From positions 456,345 to 520,344 of the forward strand of contig OY764147.1 in assembly GCA_963668115.1 (NCBI GenBank): a stretch of 64,000 bases of DNA, given 5' to 3'. Shown piece by piece: positions 5,248-35,880 of this stretch (position 1 is its first letter; every line of letters begins with the position of its first letter). The notes beneath the pieces were generated by a model, which was given only the letters and a program-made list of their open reading frames with translations, was not told where the DNA came from and did not search any database. Source of the DNA: Dehalococcoidia bacterium. Its GTDB lineage: Bacteria; Chloroflexota; Dehalococcoidia; Plut-88900. Position numbers and translations under genes: made by a program.

Positions 5248-5340
5248 GGGGGGGTGGATTCCCGATCAGAGTCGGAAATGACGAGGCAGGAGGGCAGTCA
5301 AGAGTGATTACATCCAGGGAGTATGGGTGGGGTGTGGGAG
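5248..5340. repeat. Intergenic repeat copy R1 (module A hairpin GGTGGATTCCCGATCAGAGTCGGAAATGACG plus G-rich tail)
   Basis: Shares the core GGATGGATTCCCnA-loop-TnGGGAATGACG with copies at 9071, 33009 and 35804. Confidence 0.6.
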
Positions 5341-5353
5341 CGAGGAGGCGCGC

Positions 5354-6319
5354 TCAGGCAGGCAGTTCCCGCTGGACCGTTCGGCGGTCTGGGTTGTCAA
5401 AATAGACACATTCGGATAGAAGGTCGCCGTCCTGCGCGCCGGCTTCTGCGATTTCGATATGCTGACGGGTAAACGACTTGTACGGGAACGCCCCCTTCCC
5501 ATACTGCTCTTCACCGAACTCAAGGGTCTTTGCCCGCTGCAGGTCGTAGTGTGATGCCAGATCAACAAAACGCATTACGTAAGCAGCACGCCTGGGAAGG
5601 GGTCCCTCGCCGAGCATTACGCTTCGATGAATCACGTTTTTGTTGAACAGGAGCGCATCGCCGGGTTGGAAATCGTCTTCGACCTGATGACTTTCGAGTA
5701 TATCCATGGTCGGGTGCGCATTGAAGATTGACCCGCGCATCTTGAAGTAGTCGGTCACGCTCGTACTGATTCCGGCTCGCTCTTTGGCCTTCAAAGTAGA
5801 GACGATGGCCGGATCGAACTGGTAGGCGTAATTGCCTGATAGAACGTTTTCGGATACATAAGCCATCCCGCCCCGCTGCCCCTTCGCATCCACAGGTTGC
5901 AGCGGCACCCATAACGTGCATGCGAATTCTTCCGCGACTTGGAACCCGAAACTCTGTATGCCGACATGCCAGGAAAGTCCCTTGTCGACGTTCTTGCTGA
6001 GTTCAAAGCATATTTCGAAGGTCAGAAAGAGGTCATGGTCGACGATATCCGTGAGAGAACGACGGAAAAAGGGCCTTTCCATCAATTGATATACGTGTTC
6101 CTTTTCAGTCTCAAAGTCATACTTCGATCGAGTAAACCTCGAAGTGACCTGTATGTTGCTGACCACCCCTCGATCCATTTCGGCATCTACACGATTGAGT
6201 AAGAAGTCGACCGCGGCAGGGTTGAAAAACCCTTCCAACTTGATGAAGCCGTCGCGCCGGAATTGCTCTTTGTGCTCCCGGGTGACAGTAAATTCATTAT
6301 CGAAGGGATGGCTGCTCAT
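5354..6319 (-). CDS. Phytanoyl-CoA dioxygenase (PhyH) family Fe(II)/2-oxoglutarate oxygenase
   Basis: The tracked 462-aa ORF has a spurious N-terminal extension. The start was placed at ATG 6317-6319 (MSSHPFDNEF), preceded by GGGAGAAAG. The gene is noticeably lower in GC than its neighbours. Confidence 0.7.
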   Translation of the reverse strand: MSSHPFDNEFTVTREHKEQFRRDGFIKLEGFFNPAAVDFLLNRVDAEMDRGVVSNIQVTSRFTRSKYDFETEKEHVYQLMERPFFRRSLTDIVDHDLFLTFEICFELSKNVDKGLSWHVGIQSFGFQVAEEFACTLWVPLQPVDAKGQRGGMAYVSENVLSGNYAYQFDPAIVSTLKAKERAGISTSVTDYFKMRGSIFNAHPTMDILESHQVEDDFQPGDALLFNKNVIHRSVMLGEGPLPRRAAYVMRFVDLASHYDLQRAKTLEFGEEQYGKGAFPYKSFTRQHIEIAEAGAQDGDLLSECVYFDNPDRRTVQRELPA

Positions 6320-6475
6320 AGATACTTTCTCCCAACTCATGATTTTGGGGAGTTTAACGGGGCTGTTTGTCCAATACGATTGTAGCAATAGAAGGCCCCA
6401 CGGTCTAACAAGAATTGCCATAAATTGGTAGATGGGGGAATTTGCCCAACAGGTACAGAGTCGGCTGAGGACGAT

Positions 6476-6575
6476 GTGGGAACGGAGGCGGGGATGATGG
6501 GGGTGAGTGGGGAGCTTGCGCTGCAGATTCCTCGCGGGGCATCGGAATGGGAAGGGGGAGTCGGGGGTGGGGGGA
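6476..6575. repeat. Intergenic repeat copy R5 (module B GGGGATGATGGGGGTG plus module C GCAGATTCCTCGCGGGGCATCGGAATGG)
   Basis: Module B is shared with 33078 and 35849. Module C is shared with 21091-21121. Confidence 0.55.
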
Positions 6576-6731
6576 TACTCTAAATTCACAAACGAAGTGC
6601 AACACCTGGTTGAAGGGTTGGTTTGACCGGGTAGAGGGGGGAGTATAGAATCGGGCGTGGAGGCCGCGGGCGGCGGGACTAGCGGCTCGGGCTTCGTAAT
6701 CTCAGTGGATGTTCCGTAAAGGAGTTGTGCT

Positions 6732-8096
6732 ATGGCAGCCACCCAGACCCCGACCGCCGATGAACTGAAGGAGATGGCCCTTAACTACTTCTGGCCGCAT
6801 TCCCAGCAAGTAGCGGACTTCGAGAAGGAGGACGGGCTTCACGTGATGGCTGACGGGGAGGGGTGCTGGGTGGAGGACACGGAGGGCAGGAAGTACATAG
6901 ACGTGCTTTCGGGGATGTGGTTGAAGAACATCGGGTACGGGCGGAAGGAGATTGGGGAGGCGGTGTACCAGCAGATGCAGACCATAACGTATTCGCCGGA
7001 GAACACGACGAACGTACCTGCGCTGAAGCTGGCCAAGCGGTTGGCGGGCCTGTCCCGGGACAAGGAGTCCAGGGTGTTTCTGGTGAGCGGGGGGTCGGAG
7101 GCTGTGGAGTCGGCGCTGAAGATGGCGAAGGCGTACCACAAGAACAGGGGGGAGGCGGGGCGGTACAAGATAATCAGCAGGCAGAATTCCTATCACGGAG
7201 CTACGTTCGCACTTATGGGCCTGGGAGGATACCCGGGGACCCAGGGGTTCGGGCCCCTGGTGCCGGGGAACATCCATGTGCCGACGCCCAACCACTACCG
7301 ATGCCAGTTCTGCAGCCTGGCGTCCGAGTGCAACGTGGAGTGCGCCAATGAAATCGAACGGGCGATCCTGCATGAAGGGCCGGAGACGGTGGCCGCGGTA
7401 ATCGGCGAGCCGATTTCAACGTCTGCGATGATGGTGCCGCATCCCGAATACTGGCCGACGGTCAGGCGGATATGCGACAAGTACGGGGTGCTGTTGATAG
7501 TAGACGAGGTGATCACGGGATTCGGGCGGACGGGGAAGATGTTCGCGTCTGAGCACTGGGACCTGCAGCCGGACATAATGACGATGGCGAAGGGGCTATC
7601 GAGCGGGTACCTGCCGATTGGAGCGGCGGTAGCCCGGAAGTCGGTGGCGGACGAATTCATCGGCGGGGAGGACAAGACGTTCAAGCACCTGTTCACGTTC
7701 GGCGGGAACCCGGTTTCCTGTGCGGCGTCCATGGCGAACCTGGACATCCTGGAGAACGAGGGGCTTGTAGAGAACTCGGCGGCGATGGGGACGTACATGT
7801 ACGAGCAGCTTCAGACGCTGTACGAACACCCGATTGTGGGGGAGGTGAGGGGAGGTCTCGGGCTCCTGGCGGCGGTGGAGATAGTGAAGGACCGGGACAC
7901 GAAGGAGAAGTTCGCCGAGGAGGCGGTGCTGGGGGAGAAGCTCACGAAAGGCTTCCTAGAGCACAGAATCCTGACCCGTCAGCGGGGCAACCTGATCTTC
8001 CTGAGCCCGCCCCTGTGCGTCACTAAAGACGAAGTCGACTATATAGTGAGCAACCTGAACGAGATACTTCAGCAGGTCAGCGCAGAGATGGGCTAG
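6732..8096 (+). CDS. Class-III (omega) aminotransferase, PLP-dependent
   Basis: 454-aa ORF with class-III aminotransferase architecture. The ITGFGRTGKMFASEHW stretch contains the conserved Lys region. Confidence 0.85.
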   Translation: MAATQTPTADELKEMALNYFWPHSQQVADFEKEDGLHVMADGEGCWVEDTEGRKYIDVLSGMWLKNIGYGRKEIGEAVYQQMQTITYSPENTTNVPALKLAKRLAGLSRDKESRVFLVSGGSEAVESALKMAKAYHKNRGEAGRYKIISRQNSYHGATFALMGLGGYPGTQGFGPLVPGNIHVPTPNHYRCQFCSLASECNVECANEIERAILHEGPETVAAVIGEPISTSAMMVPHPEYWPTVRRICDKYGVLLIVDEVITGFGRTGKMFASEHWDLQPDIMTMAKGLSSGYLPIGAAVARKSVADEFIGGEDKTFKHLFTFGGNPVSCAASMANLDILENEGLVENSAAMGTYMYEQLQTLYEHPIVGEVRGGLGLLAAVEIVKDRDTKEKFAEEAVLGEKLTKGFLEHRILTRQRGNLIFLSPPLCVTKDEVDYIVSNLNEILQQVSAEMG

Positions 8097-8111
8097 CGGG
8101 TCGGGGCGGCG

Positions 8112-9023
8112 ATGAAGTTCGGGATTACGCTCAAGGAGAGCGGGGGTGACGCCGCGGCGCAAGCGAAGGAGGCGGAAGAGCTGGGTTTCGATTCGCTGTG
8201 GGCGGGGGAGCACGTGGTCTGGCGGCACCCGATCCACGACAGCCTTATGCAGATGGCCGCTGCGGCGGCGGTTACCGAACGCATCAGGCTGGGCACGGCG
8301 ATAGTGCTGATTCCCCTAAAGCACCCGATCCTCATGTGCAAAGCGGTGACTACGCTTGACCACGTCTCCGGGGGAAGGGTGGACTTCGGGGTCGGGATTG
8401 GGGGGGAGTACCCGAAGGAGTTCGAGGCGATGGGAGTGCCTGTGAATGAGCGCGGGCCAAGGGCCAACGAGATACTCCGGCTGATGAAGAGGCTGTGGAC
8501 TGAGGAGTCGGTGACGTTTTCGGGGCGGTTCTACGAGACGGAGGACATCGGGCTGGAGCCGCACCCGGTGCAAAAGCCGCACCCGCCGATCTACGTGGGC
8601 GGTCGGAGGAAGTCGGTGCGGAGGACAGGGTTGTACGGGGATGGGTGGATTCCTTACATGTATTCACCAGAGTTGTTCAAGGAGGGGTGGGAGCAGATAA
8701 CGCAGATAGCGGAGGAGGCGGGTCGGGACCCGGGGGGGATAGACCCGACGGTGTGGGCGCCGATTTGTATTGCGGATGACTATGATGAAGCGGCCCGAAT
8801 GTCGAGCCAGGCATTAGGCGGGGACTACGGGCAGTCCTTCGATGCGATTGTGCGGAAGTATGCGCTTCTCGGGACACCGGAGCAGATCGTGGCTAGGATG
8901 GGCGAGTATCAGGAGGCTGGGGTGGAGCATTTCATATTCAGTCCGTCGGGGCCGGAGGAGGTGACGGCGGGGATGCCGGAGCGGGTTGCGCGGGAAGTGA
9001 TTCCGCTGTTTGGTCGGGGGTAA
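8112..9023 (+). CDS. LLM-class F420-dependent oxidoreductase
   Basis: 303-aa ORF starting MKFGITL..LGFDSLWAGEH with a luciferase-like fold. Confidence 0.8.
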   Translation: MKFGITLKESGGDAAAQAKEAEELGFDSLWAGEHVVWRHPIHDSLMQMAAAAAVTERIRLGTAIVLIPLKHPILMCKAVTTLDHVSGGRVDFGVGIGGEYPKEFEAMGVPVNERGPRANEILRLMKRLWTEESVTFSGRFYETEDIGLEPHPVQKPHPPIYVGGRRKSVRRTGLYGDGWIPYMYSPELFKEGWEQITQIAEEAGRDPGGIDPTVWAPICIADDYDEAARMSSQALGGDYGQSFDAIVRKYALLGTPEQIVARMGEYQEAGVEHFIFSPSGPEEVTAGMPERVAREVIPLFGRG

Positions 9024-9070
9024 GGGGCCCCCGGCCTCACCCCAGGGCAACCATAAGGGATTGCCCCTAC

Positions 9071-9120
9071 GGGGGATGGATTCCCAATCGGAGTTGGGAA
9101 TGACGATGGTGTGTGCGGCG
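9071..9120. repeat. Intergenic repeat copy R2 (GGGATGGATTCCCAATCGGAGTTGGGAATGACG hairpin)
   Basis: Perfect 8-bp stem ATTCCCAA/TTGGGAAT. Lies between convergent genes. Confidence 0.6.
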
Positions 9121-9128
9121 TCGGGGAA

Positions 9129-10298
9129 CTAGGAGATATTGTAGAGGCGGGCGCAGTTGTTCCAGAGGATTTCACGCTGGCTGGACTCGGGGACGCCTTC
9201 AAGGGAGAGGAAGGTCTCGATGGCGTGGGGGTAGGCGGAGTCGTTGTGGGGCCAGTCGGTGGAGATGACGAGGTTCTTGGAGCCGATGGCCTGGATGGTG
9301 TACTTGACGAGGGCCTCGTCGGGGTCTACTGAGACGAAACAGCGCTCCTGGAAATACTCGCTCGGGGGGCGGGTGAGGCCGAATCGCTCCTTGTCACCCA
9401 TCATCTCTTCGTGCTCGTCCAGGCAGTAGAGCCACCAGGGAACCCAGCTGCTGTGGCCTTCGAGGAAGGCGGCTTTGAGGGTCGGGGTCCTTTCGAGGAC
9501 GCCGCCAGCGAGCATGTTGCCGAGGGTGCACATGAGCTCTACGGGGTGGGCGACGGAGTGGCCGAGGGCGTGGTTGTCCATGTAGCGTCGGGCGAGGTGG
9601 TCCTGGTAGGCCATCTGGATTCCGTGGAAGGATACGGGAACGCCGAGGGACTGGGCGGCGTTCCAGAAGGGGTCATAGCAGGGGTCGTACCAGGGGCGTT
9701 GGCGGACAGGGTTGCTGGGGAGGACGAGGGTCACGGCGCCGAGGTTGTTGACGGCGAACTCGGCCTCCTGAATGGCGAGATTGACATCGTGCATGGGGAC
9801 TAGGGCGCCGAGCTTGAGGATGGTCGGGTCTGCGTCGCAGTAGTCACGGAGCCAGAGGTTGAAGGCACGGCAGATGGCGGCGGCGAGCTTGGGGTCCATG
9901 TCGTCGTAGCCGATGACGTGGGCGCCCATGGTGCGGAAGCAGATGGCGATGTCCAGGCCTTCCACCTTGACGGCTTCGAGCATGTGCTCGGGGCGGGAGC
10001 CTTCCTCCTCGCCAGGGCCGAGGCTGCCGGAGAGGTGCTTGTCGGGTTGATAGGTGCCTTCGGATTCCGCCTTTTGCCGGGCGATCTCGTTGCGGATATC
10101 GAGGCCGCGCTGGCGTTCGGGGAGGTCGATGAAGGCGGGGAGGGGTCTGCCGTTGCAGTGCCAGGTCTCGCCTCGGCCGTTCATGGATATCTTGCAGGGG
10201 GCGAGGTCTTTGAAGGCGGGCTCTATGTAGTCGAGCCACAGGTTGGGGGGTTCGGAGACGTGGATATCGCTGTCCATGACTTTGAAGCCGTTGTTCAT
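9129..10298 (-). CDS. Amidohydrolase-2 family metal-dependent hydrolase
   Basis: 389-aa ORF with N-terminal DSDIHVSEP metal-ligand pattern and overall amidohydrolase_2 (ACMSD-like) layout. Confidence 0.7.
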   Translation of the reverse strand: MNNGFKVMDSDIHVSEPPNLWLDYIEPAFKDLAPCKISMNGRGETWHCNGRPLPAFIDLPERQRGLDIRNEIARQKAESEGTYQPDKHLSGSLGPGEEEGSRPEHMLEAVKVEGLDIAICFRTMGAHVIGYDDMDPKLAAAICRAFNLWLRDYCDADPTILKLGALVPMHDVNLAIQEAEFAVNNLGAVTLVLPSNPVRQRPWYDPCYDPFWNAAQSLGVPVSFHGIQMAYQDHLARRYMDNHALGHSVAHPVELMCTLGNMLAGGVLERTPTLKAAFLEGHSSWVPWWLYCLDEHEEMMGDKERFGLTRPPSEYFQERCFVSVDPDEALVKYTIQAIGSKNLVISTDWPHNDSAYPHAIETFLSLEGVPESSQREILWNNCARLYNIS

Positions 10299-10331
10299 GC
10301 TTATGCTCCCGAGAATGAGAAACGGATGGCT

Positions 10332-11429
10332 CTACAGATTGTGAATCCTGGCGACGGTTGCGCCGAGGATGTTAGAGCGGGCTTCCTCGGAGAGGAAGGG
10401 GCAGTGGGCGCGGTACTGGTCGAAGCACTGGCGGTAGTTCCAGAACCGGAGGACCATGGGTATATCGGTGCCGACTATGACATGGTCGGAGCCGATGCGG
10501 TTGACGATTTCTTCGACGGTAGGCTCGACGTTTTTGAATGGGTATTGCCAGATGCCGCCGAGCTGGATGGGAAAGAGAAGCTGGAGATTGCACTTGTCGG
10601 ACTCGAAGACACGCCAGATTTCTTCGGGGAGCATGATGCGGTCGTCCTGGCGGAAGTTTCCCCAAGAGAGACCGTGGGTTAGGACAACGGGGGTGTCGGG
10701 GTGGTCCTGCATCCAGCTGTAGACGGTGTCGAGCTCCTGGAGGTAGCTGGCCGTGCCCGACTTTGCGAAGGCCTGACCCGCCCTGGGTTGAACGGTGAAG
10801 TAGACGGGGAGACCGAGGGTCGAAATGCCATGCCAGAATTCGCGCATGGGGCCGGCATTCCAGCTTTCTGCAAAGCCGCCAGTCGAGTAGGGGCGGGTGA
10901 AGAACTGGTAGCCGCACACGCCCCCGGCGTTCATCCAATGCTCGACTTCCCGGAGGGCGGCGGCGGGGTCTGAGGGGATGTCGGTTTCGGGTATGTGTAC
11001 GAGGCTCTTGATGCGGTCGGGGTGACGGGCGGCGGCCTCGGAATGGAACTTGTTGTTGCGGCCGAGGTGGGAGGCGTTGTGGAGGATGGCGATATCGACC
11101 CGGGCGTAGTCCATTTCGGCGATGAGGCGGTCGGCGGGCATTTCAAGGTTGTGGAGCAGGGGCGGGAGGTACTGCTTGGTGTAGGTCTCGCCCTGGTAAG
11201 TCCAGGTTAGCCGGTCCTTGTCCCGTCCCCAGGTGACGTCGTGGAGGGCGCCGGTTTCGGGGTCGGCGAGGACGGAGTTGTCGGCGAAGGCGCGGTCGCG
11301 GACTCGCCAGACGGGTTGGTGGTGGATGGACAGCTCCGTTTGGACAGCCCGCATTTTCTGCTCGAGTGTCGGGTACCCGGCGGGGGAGTCCATGGGCTCG
11401 AAGATGTAGGCGTGGCCGTCAATAAGCAT
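10332..11429 (-). CDS. Amidohydrolase-2 family protein (paralog)
   Basis: 365-aa ORF starting MLIDGHAYIF. Tandem with the previous amidohydrolase. Confidence 0.65.
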   Translation of the reverse strand: MLIDGHAYIFEPMDSPAGYPTLEQKMRAVQTELSIHHQPVWRVRDRAFADNSVLADPETGALHDVTWGRDKDRLTWTYQGETYTKQYLPPLLHNLEMPADRLIAEMDYARVDIAILHNASHLGRNNKFHSEAAARHPDRIKSLVHIPETDIPSDPAAALREVEHWMNAGGVCGYQFFTRPYSTGGFAESWNAGPMREFWHGISTLGLPVYFTVQPRAGQAFAKSGTASYLQELDTVYSWMQDHPDTPVVLTHGLSWGNFRQDDRIMLPEEIWRVFESDKCNLQLLFPIQLGGIWQYPFKNVEPTVEEIVNRIGSDHVIVGTDIPMVLRFWNYRQCFDQYRAHCPFLSEEARSNILGATVARIHNL

Positions 11430-11483
11430 GGTAAGTCATCCTAAGTTTAACGCGTTGCTGCCCCTTCGGAGGGGACATTATAC

Positions 11484-12710
11484 TTGACTGACACTGCCCC
11501 CCGACATGGAAGGCTGATGAGCAGAATACTTGACGGGATTCGGGTCCTGGAGATAGCCAACTGGCTGGCTGCACCGGCGTCGGCGGCCTTGCTCTGCGAT
11601 TTGGGGGCCGACGTGATCAAGGTCGAGCCGCACCGTGGAGACCCGTGGCGCGGGTACCGTCTGGGGGACCCCGAGAACTACGCCTTTGAGCAGGACAACC
11701 GTGGCAAGAGGGGGATAGCGCTGGACCTGAGCAAGCCCGGATCCCGGGAGATAGTGCACAAGATTGCAGAGAGTGTGGATGTGTTTGTGACGAACCTGCT
11801 ACCGAGGCGCAGGGAGAGGTTTGGGGTGACGTACGACGACCTGAAGGGTCTCAACTCCAGGCTGATTTACCTGTCATTCACGGGGTATGGAGAGAAGGGG
11901 CCGATGTACGACAGGCTGGGGATGGACTTCGGGGCGTTCTGGTCGAGGTCGGGGATAATGAACCTGATGGGGTGGCCTGACGAGCCGCCCATTCTTCAAC
12001 GGGGAGGCATGGGGGACCACTCAACGTCACTGGGGCTGCTGGCGGGCGTGCTTGGTGCGTTGTATCACAGGGAGAGGACGGGGGAGGGGCAGGAGATATG
12101 GGGGTCGCTGTTCGGGACGGGGGTGTGGGTTATCGGGACGGATTTGCAGAGGACGCTGGTGAGTGGTCGGGATGCAGTACGCAGGCCGTATCGTCACGAG
12201 AACCTGAGCCCGATCACGAACTGGTACCAGGCGAAGGACGGGAAGTGGCTGATTTTGGAAAATCCCAATCCCAACCCGTACTGGCAGCGGGCGTGTCGGG
12301 CGCTGGGGCTTCCAGACTTGGAGAACGTGCCGGAGTACTCGACGGTGGAGGGGTTGGAGGCTAACTGCGTGGAGTTGAATGCTCTTTTTGACAAGATATT
12401 CGCAACGAAGACCCGGGACGAATGGGCACCGCTGTTGACTGAGAACGAGGTGATATGGGCGCCGATACAGAACCTGCTAGAGGTGTCGGGGGACGCGCAG
12501 GCGGAGGCCATCGAAGCCTTTGAGACTGTGGAGCACCCGGAGTACGGGGAGTACAGAGTTATCAATTTTCCGGTGAAGTTCGGCGCGACGGATAACGGGG
12601 CCCGGGGGCCGGCGCCATTGGTCGGGCAGCATACTGAGGAGGTGCTGCTCGAGTACGGGTATTCGTGGGAGGAGATTGAGGGGTTGAAGGGGGAGGGGGT
12701 TATTCCGTAG
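11484..12710 (+). CDS. CaiB/BaiF family (class III) CoA-transferase
   Basis: N-terminal GIRVLEIANWLAAPASAALLCDLGADVIKVE motif characteristic of family III CoA-transferases. Confidence 0.85.
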   Translation: MTDTAPRHGRLMSRILDGIRVLEIANWLAAPASAALLCDLGADVIKVEPHRGDPWRGYRLGDPENYAFEQDNRGKRGIALDLSKPGSREIVHKIAESVDVFVTNLLPRRRERFGVTYDDLKGLNSRLIYLSFTGYGEKGPMYDRLGMDFGAFWSRSGIMNLMGWPDEPPILQRGGMGDHSTSLGLLAGVLGALYHRERTGEGQEIWGSLFGTGVWVIGTDLQRTLVSGRDAVRRPYRHENLSPITNWYQAKDGKWLILENPNPNPYWQRACRALGLPDLENVPEYSTVEGLEANCVELNALFDKIFATKTRDEWAPLLTENEVIWAPIQNLLEVSGDAQAEAIEAFETVEHPEYGEYRVINFPVKFGATDNGARGPAPLVGQHTEEVLLEYGYSWEEIEGLKGEGVIP

Positions 12711-12766
12711 GCCCCGCTCATGCTGAGCCTCACGGAGAATGAACAACCCCACCCAAGAATAAAATT

Positions 12767-12802
12767 GAAACATCAAAAAGGCAGGTCTTTTTTTGATGTT
12801 TC
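12767..12802. terminator. Bidirectional rho-independent terminator
   Basis: Perfect hairpin GAAACATCAAAAAG-gcaggtc-CTTTTTTTGATGTTTC with flanking T/A tracts, between convergent CaiB and hotdog genes. Confidence 0.7.
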
Positions 12803-12839
12803 TTTACCCAGGGAGGAGAGGATGGGAAGAGAAGGAGGG

Positions 12840-13274
12840 TTAGAGGAGAGCGGAGGCTTGGCCTACGATGACTTTTTTGGTGTTCTGGTCTTCGGCCCAG
12901 ATGTTGAGGCGGACGGACCGGCTATCAACTTCGGAGACTTCGGCGTGGTAGGTTAGGGTGTCGCCGTACCAGACGGGGGCGATGAACTTGGTGGTGAGGG
13001 TCCCGCCTTCTATCCAGCCCTTGGGGTCGGGGAGCCAACGGGAGATGAGGACGGAGAAGAAGGCCTCGGTGAGGACTCCCTGGGCGATGGGCTCTTGATA
13101 CATGGTCTGGGCGGCAGCTTCGCGGTCGGCGTGGAAGCTGGCTTTCCAATCGCTGCGGGCGGCGATTCTTTCGAAGAGCTCTTCGTAGGCGATGACCATC
13201 TCCTCGGTGATGGTACGGGTGAGGGTGGGGAGGGAGTCGCCCTTCTTGATGTCTATCGATGTGGCTTGGGGCAC
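12840..13274 (-). CDS. MaoC-like (hotdog fold) dehydratase subunit
   Basis: The ORF track N-terminus is spurious. Likely GTG start at 13272-13274 preceded by GGAG. Product is the C-terminal-type hotdog half (…VWYGDTLTYHAEV…). Confidence 0.65.
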   Translation of the reverse strand: MPQATSIDIKKGDSLPTLTRTITEEMVIAYEELFERIAARSDWKASFHADREAAAQTMYQEPIAQGVLTEAFFSVLISRWLPDPKGWIEGGTLTTKFIAPVWYGDTLTYHAEVSEVDSRSVRLNIWAEDQNTKKVIVGQASALL

Positions 13275-13291
13275 AGGAAATCTCCTCGGGG

Positions 13292-13765
13292 CTAGGGGGA
13301 GGGGCGGACGGTGGCCTCGCTGGGCCAGACGCTGGCGTGGTACTTTTCGGCGACGAGTTGACCGTGCTGGTTGCGACTTTCGATATTGAAGGCTACGTAC
13401 TGGTGATCTCGCTTCACCCATTTGTCTACGATCTTCATCTTGCTGGTTATGGTGTCGCCGGCGTAGACGGGGGCGATGAACTTGAAGCCGGAGCGGGAGT
13501 GGAAGGACTCGCCGGGGCGTCGGTAGCCGGCGGAGTCGAGGATGGCGATGAAGTGGGCGTAGCAGTTCACCAGTACGGGAATGGAGACGATGTCGGAGTA
13601 GCCGGCTTCTCTGGCTGATGCCGGGTCCCGGAAGACGGGGAGGTCTTCCTGGAGGAGGTCGGCGAGGCGGTCGATGAGGTCTCGGGTGACGTGGAAGACG
13701 TAGGGGGCGAACTCGAAGCCGATTTGGGCGTCTTCGTAGGTGAGGGGGGTTGGGGCGTTGTTCAT
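13292..13765 (-). CDS. MaoC-like/hotdog N-terminal-type subunit (partner of 12840-13274)
   Basis: 157-aa hotdog-fold protein located 17 nt upstream of the partner gene. This is a two-gene heteromeric hydratase arrangement. Confidence 0.65.
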   Translation of the reverse strand: MNNAPTPLTYEDAQIGFEFAPYVFHVTRDLIDRLADLLQEDLPVFRDPASAREAGYSDIVSIPVLVNCYAHFIAILDSAGYRRPGESFHSRSGFKFIAPVYAGDTITSKMKIVDKWVKRDHQYVAFNIESRNQHGQLVAEKYHASVWPSEATVRPSP

Positions 13766-13802
13766 GTTGGTTTGCTGAAGAGGTGGGGAATGATTCTTAC
13801 CT

Positions 13803-14177: not shown

Positions 14178-14180
14178 GAA

Positions 14181-21054: not shown

Positions 21055-21125
21055 TGGGATGACGGATAGGGGGGTGGAGGGCGAGCAGGCATTGCAGGCT
21101 CCTCGCGGAGCCTCGGAATGGCTGG
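21055..21125. repeat. Intergenic repeat copy R6 (GGGATGACGGATAGGGGGGTGG plus module C ATTGCAGGCTCCTCGCGGAGCCTCGGAATGG)
   Basis: Module C is near-identical to 6521-6551 and contains the hairpin GGCTCC-tcgc-GGAGCC. Confidence 0.55.
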
Positions 21126-26884: not shown

Positions 26885-28945
<2,061 letters not shown>

Positions 28946-30055
28946 CTAGTTGCTTGAACCCTTGAACCCGAGGCGTTGAAGGACTTCACGCAGGGTGTCG
29001 ATTACTACGTCGATGTCGTCCTCTGTGACGTGGCCGAGGTGGCCGATGCGGAAGACCTTGCCTGCAAGGGGCCCCGGGCCTCCGGCGAGGACAACTCCGT
29101 ATTCTTCGCGGCAGATCTTGAGGAGTTGGGCCAGGTCTACACCATCGGGGGCGTTGATTGCGGTGACGGTGTTGGAGGCGAACTCTTCCTCAGCGAGTAG
29201 GGAGAGGCCGAGGGAGCGAGCGCCGTCCCTGGCGCGTCGGGCGACGGAGGCGTGGCGTTCGAAGACGTTGGCGAGGCCCTCCCGGGCGATGGCCTCGAGG
29301 CCGACGTCCAGGGCGTAGAAGGTGGAAACGGCTGGGGTCCAGGGGGTCTGGCCTCGCTCAAAGTAAGACTGGAGCTGGCCGAAGTCCCAGTGGAACCGGG
29401 GCATGGTTGAGGACTTCCATGCGTCCCAGGCACGCTGGCTGACGCTGATCATGGAGAGGCCGGGCGGGGACATCCATCCCTTCTGGGAGGCGGTGGAAAC
29501 TACGTCGCATTCCCAGGCGTCGACGGGGAGGTCAATGGAGCCGATGCTGCTAATGGCGTCTACCAGGAGGAGCCTATCGTGGGAGCGGGTGATATCGGCG
29601 ATGGAGCGGAGAGGGTTTGTCACGCCGGTGGAAGTCTCGTTATGGGTTACCAGGACGGCTTTAATAGAAGGGTCGTCGGCAAGGTGTTTGTCCACGTCAT
29701 CCGGGTTGATGGCCTTGCCGTAGGGGGCTTCCAGCTTTACTACGTCCGCGCCGAAGGCGTCGGCGATCTGGCAGTAGCGCTGTCCGAAAGAGCCGATGGT
29801 GAGGGCCAGGACTCGGTCTCCGGGTGAGAGGGTGTTTACCACGGATGCTTCCATAGCCCCGGTGCCGGAGCTTGTCATAACGTACAGGTCGTTCTCGGTC
29901 TGGAAGAACTCCTTGAGGCGGACGGTGACGCGCTCCAGGATGTCCTTGAATGCCGGGCCGCGGTGGTTGATCATCTGCGCGGTCATGGCGTCCAGGACTT
30001 CGTCGGGGACGGGGGTGGGGCCGGGTATACGGAGGTGGATTTTCTTGTCAGACAT
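28946..30055 (-). CDS. Class-V aminotransferase (serine-pyruvate/alanine-glyoxylate type)
   Basis: 369-aa PLP fold-type I, AGT-like (…SSGTGAMEA…SQKGWMSPPG…). Confidence 0.8.
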   Translation of the reverse strand: MSDKKIHLRIPGPTPVPDEVLDAMTAQMINHRGPAFKDILERVTVRLKEFFQTENDLYVMTSSGTGAMEASVVNTLSPGDRVLALTIGSFGQRYCQIADAFGADVVKLEAPYGKAINPDDVDKHLADDPSIKAVLVTHNETSTGVTNPLRSIADITRSHDRLLLVDAISSIGSIDLPVDAWECDVVSTASQKGWMSPPGLSMISVSQRAWDAWKSSTMPRFHWDFGQLQSYFERGQTPWTPAVSTFYALDVGLEAIAREGLANVFERHASVARRARDGARSLGLSLLAEEEFASNTVTAINAPDGVDLAQLLKICREEYGVVLAGGPGPLAGKVFRIGHLGHVTEDDIDVVIDTLREVLQRLGFKGSSN

Positions 30056-30105
30056 GGTTTGTGCTCAAATAGATTTTAGCTGATAAAGGGAAGAGGAAAA
30101 GGGCG

Positions 30106-31314
30106 TTATTTGTCCACAAAGACAAGAGTGCGGCGCTTGCCGACTTTCATGCGGGCGCCGGGCACGAGCCTGGACCGGTCAACGGCGTATTCGGAGAGTT
30201 TAGTGCCTTCCAGTTCGACGCCGCCGCCGTCTATGAGGCGTCGGGCTTCGCCGGAGGAAGAAGAGGCCTTGAATTCGACGAGGAGCCTGGGGATGAAGGT
30301 GGTGTCTTCGGCGTTGAGGGAAGCCAGGGGAATCTCGGTGACGATATCGTCGGCTTCTTTGCGCTGGACGATGCGCTCGAACTCGGTCTCGGCGGCGGAG
30401 GCGGCCTGGGGGGAGTGGAACTGAGCGACGATCTCCCGGGCGAGGCGTTTTTTGAGTTCAAGGGGGTTTATGGTGCGGGAGGCGAGGGCCTGGGTCATTT
30501 CGGAGATGTCGGGGTCGGGGAGGTTGGTGACGAGTTCGAGGTAGTTGGGGATCAGGTCGTCGTTGAGGCGCATGACCTTGAAGTAGGTGTCCTTCGGGGG
30601 TTCGGCGACGCCGATGTAGTTGTCGAGGCTCTTGCTCATGCGCTGGACGCCGTCGGTGCCGACGAGGATGGGAACGAGGAGACATTGCTGGGGCTTCTGG
30701 CCCACCATGCCCTGGAGCTCGCGCCCGAGGAGCAGGTTGAACTTCTGGTCGGTGCCGCCGAACTCTACGTCTGCTTCGATCACTGTCGAGTCGTAGGCCT
30801 GGAGGAGGGGGTAGAGAAGCTCGGTGATGGCGATGGGCCGGTTGGCCTTGAAGCGGTTGGAGAAGTCCTCCCGGGCAAGGATCTGGGCGACGGTGAAGCG
30901 GCTGGTGAGGGATATGACCTCGGTGAGGGTGAAATTGCCGAACCAGTCGCTCTGCCATCGGACCTCGGTGCGGTCCTTGTCGACGACTTTGAAGAACTGC
31001 TCCATGTAGGTGCGGGCGTTCTCCTGGACCTGCTCGGCGGAGAGCATCTGCCGGGTGGCGGACTGGCCGCTGGGGTCGCCGATCTGGGCGGTCCAGTCGC
31101 CGACGATGAGGATGACCCGGTGACCGAGCTCCTGGAACTGGCGCAGCTTTCGCAGGCCCACGGTGTGTCCGAGGTGGATGTCGGCGCGGGAGGGGTCGAA
31201 GCCCATCTTGAGGCGGAGGGGCCGGCCAGAATCCAGAAGGTCTTCGAGCTCCTGCTGCCGGATGACCTCGGCGACGCCGCGGGTGAAAAGGTGAGCGTAT
31301 TTTTGATTGGTCAT
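30106..31314 (-). CDS. tyrS: Tyrosine--tRNA ligase
   Basis: HLGH and KMSKS motifs plus a C-terminal S4-like domain. 402 aa. Confidence 0.95.
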   Translation of the reverse strand: MTNQKYAHLFTRGVAEVIRQQELEDLLDSGRPLRLKMGFDPSRADIHLGHTVGLRKLRQFQELGHRVILIVGDWTAQIGDPSGQSATRQMLSAEQVQENARTYMEQFFKVVDKDRTEVRWQSDWFGNFTLTEVISLTSRFTVAQILAREDFSNRFKANRPIAITELLYPLLQAYDSTVIEADVEFGGTDQKFNLLLGRELQGMVGQKPQQCLLVPILVGTDGVQRMSKSLDNYIGVAEPPKDTYFKVMRLNDDLIPNYLELVTNLPDPDISEMTQALASRTINPLELKKRLAREIVAQFHSPQAASAAETEFERIVQRKEADDIVTEIPLASLNAEDTTFIPRLLVEFKASSSSGEARRLIDGGGVELEGTKLSEYAVDRSRLVPGARMKVGKRRTLVFVDK

Positions 31315-32237
31315 CGGCTGGGGCTCGCGGCGAGGACTTTGCGGGCTACTTTCACATCGTTGGTCATCTGCTCTATCAGCTCCGGGACGCCGGAAAAGCG
31401 CATATCGCTGCGGACTAAGGCGAGGAAGTCTACGGTGAGGTGCCGGCCGTAGATGTCTTCGTCGAAGTCGAAGATGAAGACCTCCGTGGCGCGGGTCTCG
31501 CCTTCGAAAGTGGGTTTACTTCCTACGTAGGTTATGGAGTCGAGGCACCGGTTGTCCAGAAGGGCGCGGGTGGCGTAGATGCCGTCGGCGAGGAGGGCGC
31601 GGTCGGGTGGGACTTCGATGTTGGCGGTGGGGAAGCCGAGGAGGCGGCCACGCTTGTCACCTACGATGACGGGCCCCGATAGGCGGAAGGGCCGGGACAT
31701 GAGTTGCATTGCAAGCTCGACGTTGCCGGTGGAGAGGGCTTCGCGGATGGCGGTGCTGCTGACGGTGAGGTCGCCTTCGCGGATTACGTCCTGGCAGACG
31801 ACTTCGTAGCCGTATTCGGTTCCGAGTCGAGTCAGGGTGGGCACGTCTCCCTCGCGGCCTTTGCCGAGGGCGAAGTCCTGGCCGCAGACGAGGGCTTTCA
31901 TGTTCAGCTTCGAGGAGAGATGTTGGACGAACTCCGAGGCGCTGAGTTGGGACACTTCACGGGTGAAGTTTATGGCTACGACGTGGTCGATGCCGACGGC
32001 CTTGATGGCTTCGAGGCGGGAGTCCAGGTCCATGAGGTAGCGGGGCCGGAAGGCCGGGGCGAGGACGGTGAGGGGGTGATTGCGGAAGGTGACGACGGCG
32101 GAGTCCAGGCCGCGACGGTTGGCTTCTTCGATGGTGCGCCGGAAGAGGGTGCGGTGGCCGAGGTGGACGCCGTCGAACACGCCGATGGCTACGGCGGTGC
32201 GGGTGTCGGGCGGGGGGCCGGCGAGCTCTTCCAGCAA
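31311..32237 (-). CDS. ribF: Bifunctional riboflavin kinase/FAD synthetase
   Basis: N-terminal GVFDGVHLGH FAD-synthetase motif and C-terminal riboflavin kinase (…GFPTANI…). Overlaps the tyrS start by 4 nt. Confidence 0.9.
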   Translation of the reverse strand: MLEELAGPPPDTRTAVAIGVFDGVHLGHRTLFRRTIEEANRRGLDSAVVTFRNHPLTVLAPAFRPRYLMDLDSRLEAIKAVGIDHVVAINFTREVSQLSASEFVQHLSSKLNMKALVCGQDFALGKGREGDVPTLTRLGTEYGYEVVCQDVIREGDLTVSSTAIREALSTGNVELAMQLMSRPFRLSGPVIVGDKRGRLLGFPTANIEVPPDRALLADGIYATRALLDNRCLDSITYVGSKPTFEGETRATEVFIFDFDEDIYGRHLTVDFLALVRSDMRFSGVPELIEQMTNDVKVARKVLAASPSR

Positions 32238-33008
32238 GGGGTGGACCTATATCCGAGTGCGACCCCTACCAGGCGATAGGGGTCACCGGTGGGGATGGTA
32301 GCACAGGGAGTGGGACAAGTCTACCAGGGGGGCCGGTTCGGGTGGGTCGGCGACCCGGCGGGTTATCCGGTCCTCCTGGGGGCGGCTATTCGGTTGTGGG
32401 GTTTCGTTTTCGGGTTTTCTGTTTTGGAGGGGTCGGCGATGGGAGACGCCCAGTGGGACAAGGCCCCTGTTCCTGTCGGAGCAGTTTTTCGGGCGCCCAG
32501 GGTCGGGCGCAGGTTCAAGCGCCTGCCACGGGGCCCGGAGTGTCAATGGCTATGACAGCCAAGGCGCTCCCAGGGTGAGGGGAAAAGGGACAAAACGTGA
32601 TGTTATGGAACAGGACGGGACAAAGATGGGATCCAGGGCGTCTATCCATCGCCTAGATGGTCAGGGAAGGGCCACGGGCGCCCCGATGGTGAGGGGACAA
32701 CGTCCCTGTCCGCCTGAGGCGGATGTACCAGCTTGTGCCTAGGGCCTGCGCGTGGGCCTTTGGGATGGGCTGGGGCGTTGAGTCCTCGGGGTCGGGTCTC
32801 GGGGACTTCCCTGGGTTTCTGGTTCCTCCTTGTGTTACTGAATTAGTGTTCGCGAACGCAGGGTATGATAACGCCTTTGCTCAGGTGTGTCAAGCAAATG
32901 TACGTGTATTGGGGGATACGCGAGGGGTTGGCCGGCGTGGGCCGCCCCCCGCCCCAGGGTACCCACGAGGGGCACCCCTACGGGGGAGGGGACACCCCAC
33001 CGCGCCCC

Positions 33009-33095
33009 GCGGGATGGATTTACGCCAATGGCGCATCTTCGACCCGATCGGGGCCGGAATGACGGCAAGGGATGGGTGGGGATGATGGGGGGGTG
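33009..33095. repeat. Intergenic repeat copy R3 (module A with internal palindromic insertion plus module B GGGGATGATGGGGGGG)
   Basis: GGGATGGATT…CGGGGCCGGAATGACGG…GGGGATGATGGGGGGG. Direct orientation relative to R4. Contains CGCCAATGGCG palindrome. Confidence 0.55.
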
Positions 33096-33236
33096 TCTGA
33101 ACTGTGATGCATGGGATTGAGGGATTGGTTTGATTTGTTGGGAGTGGTGGGGGTGGGTTGACGGTTAATCTAAACTTGGCGGTACGCCGGAGGTGCATCA
33201 AGGACATTTACGACCCTCCAAAGGCGGGTCTTTGAC

Positions 33237-34697
33237 ATGGCTGAAGCGAATTTTGTGGACAAGACGATCTGGACGGGGGACAACCTCGATATTTTGAGGG
33301 GGTTGAACTCCGATTGCGTGGACATGATATATCTCGATCCGCCGTTCAATTCCAACCGGAACTACGCTGCTCCGGTCGGGTCACGGGCGGCGGGGGCGGC
33401 GTTCAAGGATACGTGGACGCTGTCCGACCTGGACACGGCATGGATGGGGTTGATTGCGGACGAACAGCCGGCGATGTACAAGGTGATAGAGACGGCGGGG
33501 CTGACGCACGGAAAGGGGATGCAGTCTTACCTGTGCATGATGGCGGTGCGGCTGGTTGAGATGCGGCGGGTGCTGAGGGACACAGGGTCAATATATCTGC
33601 ACTGTGACCCGACGGCATCGCACTATCTGAAGATGCTGATGGACTCGATATTTGGAGCGGGACTATTCAAGGCAGAGATCAATTGGCAAAGGACATCCGC
33701 TCATAGTGACTCGCGCACCTTTGGTAATGTGAGTGACAAGCTTTTGTTTTACAGTGCGACCTCCATAAATGCAGATGCAATTCGTACTCCCTTAAATCCT
33801 GATTACGTAAAAAGTCACTACCGATATACCGATAAACGTGGGCGCTATCAAGACGATAATTTGACTGGCCCTAGCCACGGGTCTCCACCTGGCAGTCCTG
33901 GTACACAACCTTGGCGTGAGTACGATCCGACTTCTATCAACCGCATTTGGTCGGTTCCAAAAACAGGAAGATACGCCACCTGGATTGACCACAACATCAT
34001 TCCGGGATATCTGAAAATGGAGAGCATATTTGATCGCTTAGATGCTTTGGAGCAAGCCGACATGCTCATCCATACTGAAAGAGGTCTCGTACCACGACTT
34101 AAACGGTATTCGCAGGCTAGTCTTGGTCAAGTTCCTAGCAACAACTGGACTGACATTTCCCCAATCAACTCCCAAGCTAAAGAGCGCACAGGCTATCCCA
34201 CCCAAAAGCCCCTTGCCCTGTTAGAGCGGATTATCTCGGCGTCTTCCAATCCGAGCGATGTGGTGCTGGACCCGTTTTGCGGGTGCGCAACAGCCTGTGT
34301 GGCGGCGGAGAAACTGGGAAGGAAATGGGTGGGGATAGACATTTCGCCAAAGGCCGTCGAATTGGTGAATATGCGGTTGCGGAAGTTCATGGGGGACTTG
34401 TTCCACGAACGGTTGGTGACGGCCCGGACAGACATACCGCGTCGGACGGACATATTGGTCCCGATTCCGTATCGGAAGCAGAAGCACGTACTGTTTGGTC
34501 GGCAGGAGGGGAGGTGTGCGGGGTGCAAGTATGAGTTCCCGTTCAGGATTTTAGAGGTGGACCACGTGATACCGAGGAGTAGGGGAGGGTCGGACCACCT
34601 GGACAATTTGCAACTGCTGTGTCCTAACTGCAATCGGATCAAAGGTGATAGGGAGATGTCGTACCTGATGGCTCGGTTGAAGGAGAGGGTGGGGTAG
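33237..34697 (+). CDS. Beta-class N6-adenine/N4-cytosine DNA methyltransferase fused to a C-terminal HNH endonuclease domain
   Basis: Motif IV DPPF near the N-terminus, motif I (VLDPFCGCATACVAAEKLG) near residue 370, then CxxC…HVIPRSRGGSDHLDNLQLLCPNCN HNH. The central part (~33650-34200) is markedly AT-richer. Confidence 0.85.
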   Translation: MAEANFVDKTIWTGDNLDILRGLNSDCVDMIYLDPPFNSNRNYAAPVGSRAAGAAFKDTWTLSDLDTAWMGLIADEQPAMYKVIETAGLTHGKGMQSYLCMMAVRLVEMRRVLRDTGSIYLHCDPTASHYLKMLMDSIFGAGLFKAEINWQRTSAHSDSRTFGNVSDKLLFYSATSINADAIRTPLNPDYVKSHYRYTDKRGRYQDDNLTGPSHGSPPGSPGTQPWREYDPTSINRIWSVPKTGRYATWIDHNIIPGYLKMESIFDRLDALEQADMLIHTERGLVPRLKRYSQASLGQVPSNNWTDISPINSQAKERTGYPTQKPLALLERIISASSNPSDVVLDPFCGCATACVAAEKLGRKWVGIDISPKAVELVNMRLRKFMGDLFHERLVTARTDIPRRTDILVPIPYRKQKHVLFGRQEGRCAGCKYEFPFRILEVDHVIPRSRGGSDHLDNLQLLCPNCNRIKGDREMSYLMARLKERVG

Positions 34698-34707
34698 GGG
34701 GAGGAGG

Positions 34708-35715
34708 TTACGAGCCTGGACCTTCACCTATACGGGCGATAATCCTGTTCTTCAATTCACTACGCAGGTCCTCTGGGGTATCCCAAACGATGTGTGCATA
34801 TTGGCGTGTGTCAAAGTGTAGCTTGTCTATCATGTCATTGCGGCAAGTGTATATGACTGGAATGCCTAGACCATGAGCAAAACCCGCCTCAAAATAAACT
34901 CCACCTCTAGCACCGCCTTCCCCGTGGGTAAAGTCAGCAACCAAAAATCGGGAGCGTCGAATTTCAGCAATTATTTCATCATCAATCTTGTCTATGTCCG
35001 GCTTCTGGTCAATTCTAAGTGGATTATATCCTGCGTCCTTAATGGCTAGTCTGACACCATTGTCAAATGCCTCGTCCATACTGTCATCAAGCCACATGGC
35101 AACAAAGGCTTGAGCAGAATCCAGATTTATCTTTTGCTCTGCAATGCGGCGGTACCCGGATACCGTGAGCCCGCCATGGAACAACCCATTCACAAGCCTC
35201 TGTCCCCGTATCCATCTCATCTCCTCCAAATAGTCGAGCAAATATACGACCTCACCCCATTCAACCGATTCTGACCACGCAAACGCTCCATAGGATTCCT
35301 GCTGAATCTCTACAACAGTTGCTATTGTTGTTGCGTGTCTTTCGATGAATCGAAGGAGTCTATCGGCACGTTGCTCAACTGGTATGGGAGGCTCCTTTCT
35401 AGCTTGTTCTACGAGCTGCGTATCGACAAGTGGCCATCTTACTCCTTGTTCTAGTTGATCAAGAATGATAGTAGTTATCTTCGCTCTTAGTTTCCCGTTA
35501 ACGGTACTGCCTTTGAGATCAAATTCTGCCCCAACAGCAACTGCGTAAGGCCCTCCAACGCGAGGGGAGTCCTCGATAAGTGTCCGACGTCTCCGGAAGT
35601 CGTATGAAACTGTGGCTTGAAAGTCTGGCCATATCTGACATTGGTCTTGCGGCACTTTAAACCTCGTTATTGCTTCTCTCAGAAATCTTGAGCTATCTGC
35701 AGCTTGACCTTTCAA
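34708..35715 (-). CDS. Two-domain protein: unknown N-terminal domain plus C-terminal nucleoside 2-deoxyribosyltransferase/TIR-like (flavodoxin-fold) domain; candidate defence effector
   Basis: The C-terminal ~130 aa (AFVAMWLDD…FLVADFT…GVYFEAGFAHGLGIPVIY) resembles the NDT/TIR-like catalytic-Glu motif. Low GC. Convergent with the MTase-HNH gene. TTG start. Confidence 0.45.
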   Translation of the reverse strand: MKGQAADSSRFLREAITRFKVPQDQCQIWPDFQATVSYDFRRRRTLIEDSPRVGGPYAVAVGAEFDLKGSTVNGKLRAKITTIILDQLEQGVRWPLVDTQLVEQARKEPPIPVEQRADRLLRFIERHATTIATVVEIQQESYGAFAWSESVEWGEVVYLLDYLEEMRWIRGQRLVNGLFHGGLTVSGYRRIAEQKINLDSAQAFVAMWLDDSMDEAFDNGVRLAIKDAGYNPLRIDQKPDIDKIDDEIIAEIRRSRFLVADFTHGEGGARGGVYFEAGFAHGLGIPVIYTCRNDMIDKLHFDTRQYAHIVWDTPEDLRSELKNRIIARIGEGPGS

Positions 35716-35803
35716 ATGGTCACAACCTACATTAGTAAATTATATCCTCGAACTCTTGAGAACCTAAGCGTGGTTACATGTGGGCCAGCCCCGCCCCGTC
35801 ACC

Positions 35804-35880
35804 GGGGATGGATTCCCGACTACTCGGGAATGACGGAGTAACGGGAGTGGGGATGATGGGGGTGGGGGGTGGGGGGAGGT
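35804..35880. repeat. Intergenic repeat copy R4 (module A GGGGATGGATTCCCGACTACTCGGGAATGACGG plus module B GGGGATGATGGGGGTGG)
   Basis: Perfect stem ATTCCCGA/TCGGGAAT. Same orientation as R3, so together they bracket the low-GC cassette. Confidence 0.6.

Follow-up and report, generated by a model that had tools for sequence, protein, structure and literature searches.

CGTC-tagged repetitive extragenic palindromes (REPs) are hairpins with a CGTC (or TGTC) tag, a stem of 8-9 bp starting A-T, a short loop and a CCA tail. The tag variants are TGTC and CCTC, loops are of 4-5 nt, the members include Neisseria dRS3 and the Rickettsia palindromic elements RPE-4 and RPE-6, which were equated with CGTC REPs, and no REP-associated tyrosine transposase (RAYT) is known for them (Di Nocera, De Gregorio and Rocco 2013, PMC3733652). 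Chenal et al. 2025 redefined the longer Neisseria unit as NTS, CGTCATTCCCGCGMAVGCGGGAATCYRG, which is bound only as single-stranded DNA by SsnA, a 94-aa GIY-YIG protein that cuts a few nt upstream; neither the reverse strand of NTS nor its RNA form is a substrate (PMC11893778). Ssn-related motifs (SRMs) flank ssn genes across phyla, SsnA activity in N. meningitidis lowers the integration of NTS-bearing transforming DNA, and strand-specific binding and cleavage of single-stranded DNA are known only for the Neisseria and Wolbachia enzymes (PMC11893778). Here, we describe short repeats, modules A to D, in a 64,000-nt stretch (positions 456,345 to 520,344 of contig OY764147.1, assembly GCA_963668115.1; hereafter the window) of an uncultured member of the Dehalococcoidia (Chloroflexota) with a genome of about 3.0 Mb (3.01-Mb chromosome). 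Module A carries the features of a CGTC-tagged REP, and the orientation of its copies follows the G-rich strand.

Module A is a CGTC-tagged hairpin

Module A is a hairpin of 30-33 nt with six copies in the window, all on the + strand, and a density of about one hairpin per 8 kb. Read on the minus strand, it has the form CGTC-ATTCCCGA-loop of 4-6 nt-TCGGGAAT-CCA, and one copy reads CGTC-ATTCCCGA-GTAG-TCGGGAAT-CCA-TCC. The arms can also be written GGATGGATTCCCGA...TCGGGAATGACGG, and the hairpin as GGATGGATTCCCGACTACTCGGGAATGACGG. The 8 bp stem starts AT and has asymmetric conserved tags at its flanks, namely CGTC 5' and CCA 3' on the minus strand; CGTC stands at the minus-strand start of 6/6 copies, and CCATCC or CCACCC follows the stem 3' in every one. 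Loops are of 4 nt (as in the 35806 copy) or 6 nt. For scoring, a covariance model (R1) was derived from 47 A-type hairpins, of which five come from the window; its scores are given with the copies.

3269-3299, + strand: A copy in valS; R1 53 bits; + strand GGATGGATTTCCGCCTTCGCGGGAATGACGG, minus strand CGTCATTCCCGCGAAGGCGGAAATCCAT
3318-3350, + strand: second A copy in valS; R1 49.5 bits; 8-bp stem with CCGGC/GCCGG
5252-5284, + strand: A copy between the stop of a PhyH-like gene and the conserved valS promoter; R1 36.8 bits; one T.G in the stem
9074-9106, + strand: A copy in a spacer between convergent genes; R1 42.5 bits; stem with CCCAA/TTGGG, a compensatory variant
33012-33065, + strand: A copy; a nested insertion of about 22 nt (ACGCCAATGGCGCATCTTCGAC) interrupts its stem
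35806-35836, + strand: A copy with a perfect 8-bp stem and 4-nt loop; R1 51 bits

Run over the window with filters off, R1 gave five full matches of 37-53 bits (E 1e-5 to 8e-9), a partial match on the insertion variant at 33008 and no independent minus-strand copy. The insertion variant is also found in a relative, L108, and further nested hairpins occur in another, L199 (loci from the searches described below are cited by such numbers). An earlier note on this DNA had placed module A at four loci, with starts within 1-2 nt of those given here and with the internal insertion in the 33012 copy, and had described the repeats as always intergenic with perfect stems. The four copies are confirmed, but the two that it did not list (3269-3299 and 3318-3350) lie in frame within valS, and the repeats are therefore not always intergenic. 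The ATTCCCGA/TCGGGAAT stem is 8 bp long in four copies and perfect in three of these, the 5252 copy including a T.G pair; that of the 3269 copy has a mismatch and that of the 33012 copy is interrupted.

Variation in the module A stem is compensatory. At the free stem pair (16-28) the alignment has C-G 26 times, G-C 10 times, U-A 7 times and A-U 3 times, and 98.8% of cells are paired; shifting the partner by 1-3 columns lowers this to 25-63%.

The tag, stem and CCA tail that define CGTC REPs are all present, with loops slightly longer than published. The 3269 copy is identical to the Neisseria NTS consensus CGTCATTCCCGCGMAVGCGGGAATCYRG at 26/28 positions, and the other four full-length window copies are 4-8 edits from it, mostly compensatory stem changes and longer loops. 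On these sequence features, modules A and C (the latter described below) are subfamilies, specific to this lineage, of the CGTC/TGTC-tagged REP superfamily, to which Neisseria dRS3/NTS and the SRMs also belong. The REP/MITE-like class (MITE, miniature inverted-repeat transposable element) proposed in the earlier note was right, but the consensus, which it did not recognise as a described family, is one: module A has the CGTC-tagged REP architecture and lies near Neisseria dRS3/NTS.

The hairpin type is widespread. When 185,579 species genomes were scanned with the pattern GGATGGATT-N8-38-GGAATGACG, at least 116 blocks were recovered from Dehalococcoidia, other Chloroflexota, Nitrospirales, Binatia and other groups, and the blocks listed also include Alpha-, Beta- and Gammaproteobacteria, with Neisseria among them.

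Orientation along the G-rich strand

The GC content of the window is about 0.60, and its GC skew stays near +0.2 over the full 64 kb. This skew is found alike in + strand genes, minus-strand genes and spacers; at third codon positions it is +0.30 in + strand genes and +0.46 in minus-strand genes (read on the + strand), and in repeat-bearing spacers it reaches +0.54. The repeats are indeed G-rich, as had been noted before, but because the skew is the same in genes of either strand and in spacers, most of the G-richness of the spacers reflects a strand property of the whole genome rather than the repeats themselves. Skews as high as 0.25-0.33 were seen in related Dehalococcoidia blocks.

All of the window copies of module A (6/6), module C (2/2) and module D (2/2) have the GGATGG...GACGG form on the G-rich + strand. 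The copies lie in divergent (33012 and 35806), convergent and tandem spacers and within a minus-strand gene, and their orientation is constant; hairpin orientation is independent of the direction of transcription. R1 was then run on 48 Chloroflexota blocks, and orientations were counted in those with |skew| > 0.1. In the high-skew Dehalococcoidia blocks, which come from 13 assemblies, 40 copies were on the G-rich strand and 1 was on the C-rich strand, and along a single chromosome a change in the sign of the skew brings a change of orientation (for example, L082 versus L050 and L090 versus L025). Two further loci, L117 and L118, add 4/4 copies on the G-rich strand, and C-type copies behave alike (5/5). 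In other phyla there was no bias (40 versus 35), and local skews there are small.

These copies place the presumed cleavable CGTC strand on the C-rich strand. The G-rich strand is usually the leading strand. If that is so here, the CGTC strand is the leading-strand template, and the exposed lagging-strand template carries the form that SsnA leaves uncut. Such a polarity would fit selection against self-cleavage. Neither PMC3733652 nor PMC11893778 mentions leading or lagging strands.

Association with ssn genes

The relation of this hairpin type to Ssn proteins was examined in 80 metagenomic loci that encode Ssn relatives (298 kb), using R1, which carries no ssn information. The Ssn-family set consisted of PF01541 proteins of about 95 aa among the matches listed, of which 24 were aligned. 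R1 made 114 matches, 97 of them within 200 nt of the ends of an ssn gene, corresponding to 3.2 per kb at ssn ends and 0.07 per kb elsewhere. R1 hairpins flank 60 of the 80 ssn genes, on both sides in 25 of the 80, usually as an inverted bracket with the CGTC tags outward. The hairpin type is physically associated with ssn (cd10448) genes. As R1 was built without ssn data and yet brackets ssn genes, the published association is reproduced independently and the module A type is tied to it. However, none of the 80 loci resembles this clade by GC and skew, and the link to Ssn therefore stays at the level of the hairpin type.

The earlier note had held that its reading would fail if the repeats proved to be inverted repeats of a known insertion sequence (IS) or a known non-coding RNA family. 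The first comes close to what was found, in that the same hairpins bracket ssn genes; for the second, Rfam gave 0 matches in the window at gathering thresholds and 0 at E <= 1. It had also suggested a RAYT/IS200-like partner. Such a transposase is the known partner of GTAG REPs, and the suggestion could apply to module D; it probably does not apply to modules A and C, since CGTC REPs have no known RAYT and the protein associated with them is Ssn. No RAYT (Y1 HUH) gene was matched among the window ORFs (open reading frames) checked, and the genes between inverted hairpin pairs in L048 and L002, considered as RAYT candidates, are ordinary ones (a hydrolase and a spermidine-synthase-like gene).

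Proposed mechanism

The observations as a whole are, in our judgement, probably best explained by CGTC/TGTC REP/SRM hairpins combined with cutting by an Ssn-type enzyme and strand-polarised survival of the copies. The hairpin would form in single-stranded DNA. It would be recognised on the CGTC strand by an Ssn-type nuclease, encoded at another place in the genome, which would cut a few nt 5' of the tag, as Neisseria SsnA does. Only those copies would survive whose cuttable strand serves as the leading-strand template instead of the exposed lagging-strand template, and incoming or recombining single-stranded DNA would be trimmed at the hairpins, giving the boundaries of variable segments. A more specific proposal, which we put forward as tentative, is that in Dehalococcoidia with extreme skew the Ssn-type hairpins are polarised by replichore, that the cuttable strand is kept off the lagging-strand template, and that this orientation shields the chromosome while incoming single-stranded DNA is cut. 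The DNA concerned would be that entering by transformation, conjugation or single-stranded DNA phages. If correct, this would amount to a replication-aware rule for telling self from non-self in a single-strand 'restriction' system, and would explain why hairpins lie at the edges of swapped segments.

Several points weigh against this explanation. No ssn/GIY-YIG ORF was found in the 64-kb window by phmmer with YhbQ-like and cd10448-like queries or by a motif regular expression, and about 0.9 Mb of repeat-bearing blocks from other genomes (116 blocks listed) contained only a C-terminal fragment, beside a hairpin in L027; the cd10448-like query was later validated by real matches at 75-81% identity. 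The published SRM string HGTCWYN(0-2)YYVSBRHN(0-5)WNVSBRGN(0-2)RNCYNB matches 0/5 window copies. However, it matches only 19/47 aligned homologous hairpins, and as it fails on 28/47 clear homologs the non-match in the window is read as a limit of the string, which serves for narrow searches and does not mark the bounds of the family. The equation of the G-rich with the leading strand rests on the usual rule, and the strand that a Dehalococcoidia enzyme would cut is extrapolated from the Neisseria and Wolbachia enzymes. Nothing supports module B as an element beyond this genome. Finally, the element is itself G-rich in the favoured orientation, and strand-biased mutation could contribute to the polarity. 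We judge it insufficient: most copies come close to the maximum score of the model, and close relatives differ in their insertions, so that decay alone would be expected to leave a ratio of only a few to one, against the 40 to 1 observed.

Insertions in valS and junctions of gene content

Two A copies lie within a gene for an aminoacyl-tRNA synthetase.

2437-5157, - strand: valS (valyl-tRNA synthetase, ValRS), 906 codons, host of two in-frame A copies

The 3269 copy is translated as ...SVIPAKAEIH... and the 3318 copy as ...VIPAPEPESI..., and the frame reads across both as ...SDTVIPAPEPESIPLPNSPSVIPAKAEIHPLP.... The insertion is in a loop that runs from ...ISILDQS to LPIEDRW..., and comparison with T. 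thermophilus ValRS (1GAX, E 1e-230) places it between the catalytic body and the anticodon-binding domain. T. thermophilus ValRS and homologs at 58-71% identity are without an insertion there, and in the alignment these homologs have a short loop with none of the sequences described next. ValRS relatives at 81-93% identity, on chromosomes of Dehalococcoidia metagenome-assembled genomes (MAGs) that were also found in the hairpin scan, carry in the same loop SVIPAEAGIH (A type), at times twice or with a nested extension, MSFRGSARNLG (C type) or a third repeat, SPLMGEGQGEGD, and the DNA of one relative has A + C + A within valS. This presence/absence polymorphism at short evolutionary distance indicates that the valS elements are recent gains or losses. 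The copies at 1273 and 1351 in L086 are not within valS.

The third repeat is a CCCTCTC...GAGAGGG hairpin, translated as SPLMGEGQGEGD where it occupies the valS loop in some relatives; in L199 it takes the place of module D at the junction on the ribF side (6750-6815).

The promoter-like sequence of valS, TTGACT-18-TAGAAT (minus strand, window 5158-5250), is conserved in the window and two relatives. Upstream of it, homology stops exactly at the 5252 A copy, and beyond this point the relatives have from two to five other genes. The valS leader before the ATG is C-rich (CCCCGACACCCCAACCATG) and lacks a Shine-Dalgarno-like purine run. In L118, which encodes a 90%-identical ValRS, a group II intron reverse transcriptase/maturase gene (7598-9388) is found immediately upstream of valS; the window has no such gene.

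A second junction involves a low-GC segment that is bracketed by composite repeats (A with module B) and contains two genes.

33237-35715: segment with GC 0.51, between two direct A+B units
33237-34697, + strand: DNA methyltransferase-HNH fusion
34708-35715, - strand: TIR-like protein (PADLOC TIR effector, E 1.5e-9)

In L199, which is 94-99% identical over the aligned DNA, the methyltransferase is kept at 98.8% (flanks 93-94%) and the second gene is different; the right-hand boundary of this swap is the 35806 A copy. At the left junction L199 has another hairpin instead of D, together with two extra small hairpins in or beside the A copy. These two (6833-6856 and 6913-6936, within and just after the A copy) have the form TCCGCC-nnn-GGCGGA and may be a further type of miniature palindromic element. 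Both here and upstream of valS, the hairpins sit at the edges of differences in gene content.

Insertion polymorphism at orthologous sites in close relatives, including in frame in valS, would also be produced by non-autonomous MITE- or REPIN-like elements, moved by a RAYT/IS200-type enzyme acting on single-stranded DNA or with the Ssn unit behaving as an IS, in which case the orientation bias would reflect insertion at the fork. The nesting of small hairpins within one another and the inverted hairpins that bracket ssn genes like an IS (also PMC11893778) point the same way. However, there is no transposase gene in the 64-kb window, no terminal inverted repeats or target duplications were found around the window copies, and no RAYT is known for CGTC REPs (PMC3733652). 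Moreover, IS608-like insertion into the lagging-strand template predicts CGTC on the G-rich strand, assuming the same active strand, and the opposite is seen. We consider transposition of this kind an unlikely account of the hairpins.

In other genomes most REPs lie downstream of genes and are believed to be transcribed (PMC3733652), and the classical proposal for them is a role as RNA, in stabilising 3' ends or as terminators or attenuators. The position of the 5252 copy after the PhyH-like gene and of the 9074 copy between convergent genes would suit such a role, and stem covariation alone fits RNA as well as DNA. However, orientation tracks the chromosome strand and not transcription, all copies being on the + strand despite the varied spacers and valS. 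In addition, no T run follows the stems, Rfam found no match at E <= 1, and the RNA form is not bound by Neisseria SsnA (PMC11893778). A mainly RNA-level function is for these reasons improbable. Scans for intrinsic terminators and promoters around the island gave nothing above shuffles, and no tRNAs were found in the window.

Modules B, C and D and their mosaics

The remaining modules, with one decayed A copy, are as follows.

6460-6505, + strand: decayed 3' A remnant, linker and module B (B is GGGGATGATGGGGGTG at 6490-6505)
6523-6550, + strand: module C, a diverged copy of the TGTC-tagged sister subfamily
9040-9070, + strand: module D (GTAG-tagged REP), minus strand GTAGGGGCAATCCCTTATGGTTGCCCTGGGG, adjoining the 9074 A copy
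21094-21121, + strand: module C with inner stem GGCTCC/GGAGCC, downstream of lexA
32952-32981, + strand: module D (GTAG REP), second copy; L199 has another hairpin repeat at this place
33078-33093, + strand: module B, 13 nt 3' of an A copy
35849-35864, + strand: module B, 12 nt 3' of an A copy and followed by further G runs

Module B, a G-rich tract (GGGGATGATGGGGGTG), was reported in the earlier note at 6490, 33078 and 35849; the first and last of these match exactly, and the 33078 site has one mismatch. Each of the three lies 12-13 nt 3' of A, and elsewhere the tract is found only as one near match in L103. Given this fixed distance and its near-confinement to the window, module B belongs to a composite unit and does not stand as an element of its own. 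Another MAG has similar G-rich tracts 3' of A-type hairpins.

Module C had been reported at two loci, and both copies match the degenerate pattern then given, at starts (6523 and 21094) 2-3 nt from those recorded. Its consensus in relatives is CAGATTCCTCGCGGGGCATCGGAATGACAG (reverse complement TGTCATTCCGATGCCCCGCGAGGAATCTGG), with a TGTC tag, which both window copies have lost, and an NTS-like CTGG tail. By these features module C is a TGTC-tagged sister subfamily of module A. At the site near 6.5 kb a decayed A is followed by B and then by C. These copies of B and C (6490 and 6523) overlap a long minus-strand ORF (5354-6742), but the PhyH domain of this ORF begins at residue 161 and the homolog in a relative has 321 aa, so the region near 6500 is a divergent spacer.

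Module D, a fourth module, consists of CCCCAGGG...CCCCTAC and stands immediately 5' of an A copy at both of its sites, 9040-9070 and 32952-32981. Their minus strands read GTAGGGGCAATCCCTTATGGTTGCCC and GTAGGGGTGCCCCTCGTGGGTACCC, a GTAG head followed by an imperfect palindrome, as in GTAG REPs; module D is a REP of this type, unrelated to A.

The modular shuffling described previously is real: modules are found singly, side by side and nested, and relatives differ in the combination present at orthologous sites. A dense spacer mosaic is found in L082 (840-1340), from another Dehalococcoidia MAG, where a unit of about 170 nt with two A-type hairpins is tandemly duplicated and is accompanied by a GTAG REP and by a tandem array in which a unit of about 30 nt (CTCAGGGTGAGCGGGAAGGAGGGTAGG) is present four or five times. 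In the window, ORFs of 120 and 105 codons (32723-33085 and 32890-33207) span the D+A+B mosaic and are almost certainly artefacts. Long spurious ORFs overlie the repeats in related loci as well, and ORF-based typing of spacers, being crude, proved too noisy to be relied on.

Low-complexity, G-rich spacers shaped by mutational strand bias could resemble one another by chance, above all in module B, given a skew of +0.2 everywhere and up to +0.54 in repeat-bearing spacers and the restriction of B to the window save for its one near match. We give this very little credence, as A and C recur with their flanks and with covarying stems in many genomes, B stands at a fixed distance from A at three of three sites, and shuffles expect 0 copies of C and far fewer of A and B than were observed.

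An 11-mer, GGGTGTCGGGG, has six copies in the window (5163, 10691, 17963, 28219, 44398 and 56890), all on the + strand and at both coding and non-coding sites, where 0.2 were expected from shuffles. It is also present in the closest relatives, L025, L058, L108 and L118, and is on the G-rich strand in three of these four, namely those with clear local skew. This 11-mer is possibly a polar motif like KOPS or Chi. That the hairpins are themselves polar signals of chromosome architecture of the KOPS or Chi kind, with one direction per replichore, would account for their near-absolute co-orientation with the G-rich strand but is highly improbable, as the same hairpin shows no detectable bias across phyla (40 versus 35, with weak local skew there), clusters in arrays and beside ssn genes, and at about one per 8 kb, with covarying stems, is unlike known KOPS or Chi motifs.

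Elsewhere in the window, 39522-40613 and 40676-41758 are adjacent minus-strand paralogs with about 74% identity over 300 nt; the homologs of this pair in L200 are zinc-type alcohol dehydrogenases.

What is new and its implications

The class, the superfamily and the protein partner are already described. What is new is the Dehalococcoidia lineage, with its local subfamilies and composite units, the insertion hot spot in valS and the replication-strand polarity. The polarity is possibly a new point and is what deserves follow-up. Two predictions come from it, one on the strand that the enzyme meets in vivo and the other of selection against copies in the wrong orientation. For the widespread Ssn/SRM pairs beyond Neisseria, a lineage whose hairpins are almost perfectly co-oriented with the replication-skewed strand offers a direct, testable handle on their biological role. 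The valS loop provides a natural series of recent gains and losses (ValRS 81-93% identical) in which the spread of the elements can be studied. There is also a practical side for annotation: knowing these units prevents spurious ORF calls such as 32723-33085 and peptides such as VIPAKAGIH and MSFRGSARNLG, and translated repeats (VIPAKAEIH, GMT..., SFP...) can seed false protein families.

Comparison with known systems

The nearest described repeats are the CGTC-1 to CGTC-4 REPs (PMC3733652), with which modules A and C share the CGTC tag (TGTC in C), the 8-bp stem with A-T/T-A first pairs, the short loop, the unpaired CCA tail, the occurrence of copies in genes, including tRNA synthetase genes, and the lack of a nearby RAYT. 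They differ in that Chloroflexi are absent from the five phyla listed there for CGTC repeats, loops here are of 4-6 nt, the fifth stem pair is often A-T or absent from the published consensus, and copies are single or in tandem in one orientation instead of head-to-head dimers.

With Neisseria dRS3/NTS and the SRMs (PMC11893778) there is a common core, CGTCATTCCCG...CGGGAATCC, with up to 26/28 identity, asymmetric flanks that give direction, clustering at variable genes and a hairpin type that brackets ssn. Here, however, the 3' tail is CCATCC and not CYRG, the window copies fall outside the published search string, and no cognate ssn gene was seen for this genome in the 64-kb window searched. 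Intragenic A copies are also more frequent (2/6 compared with 2% in N. meningitidis), and a replication-strand polarity has not been described for Neisseria.

GTAG REPs and REPINs, and the BIME and NIME mosaics, are matched by the GTAG head and imperfect palindrome of module D and by spacers that are mosaics of several small repeats, as in Neisseria NIMEs and enterobacterial BIMEs. Unlike in those systems, the window has no RAYT gene, and A and C carry the CGTC/TGTC tag instead. A GTAG REP form was reported for Chloroflexi in 2013. Finally, the Rickettsia RPEs are likewise small palindromic repeats found in frame in essential genes and tolerated as extra loop peptides; the repeats described here belong to another host phylum, and a single valS loop is their repeated target, with combinations of elements that vary among sister genomes.

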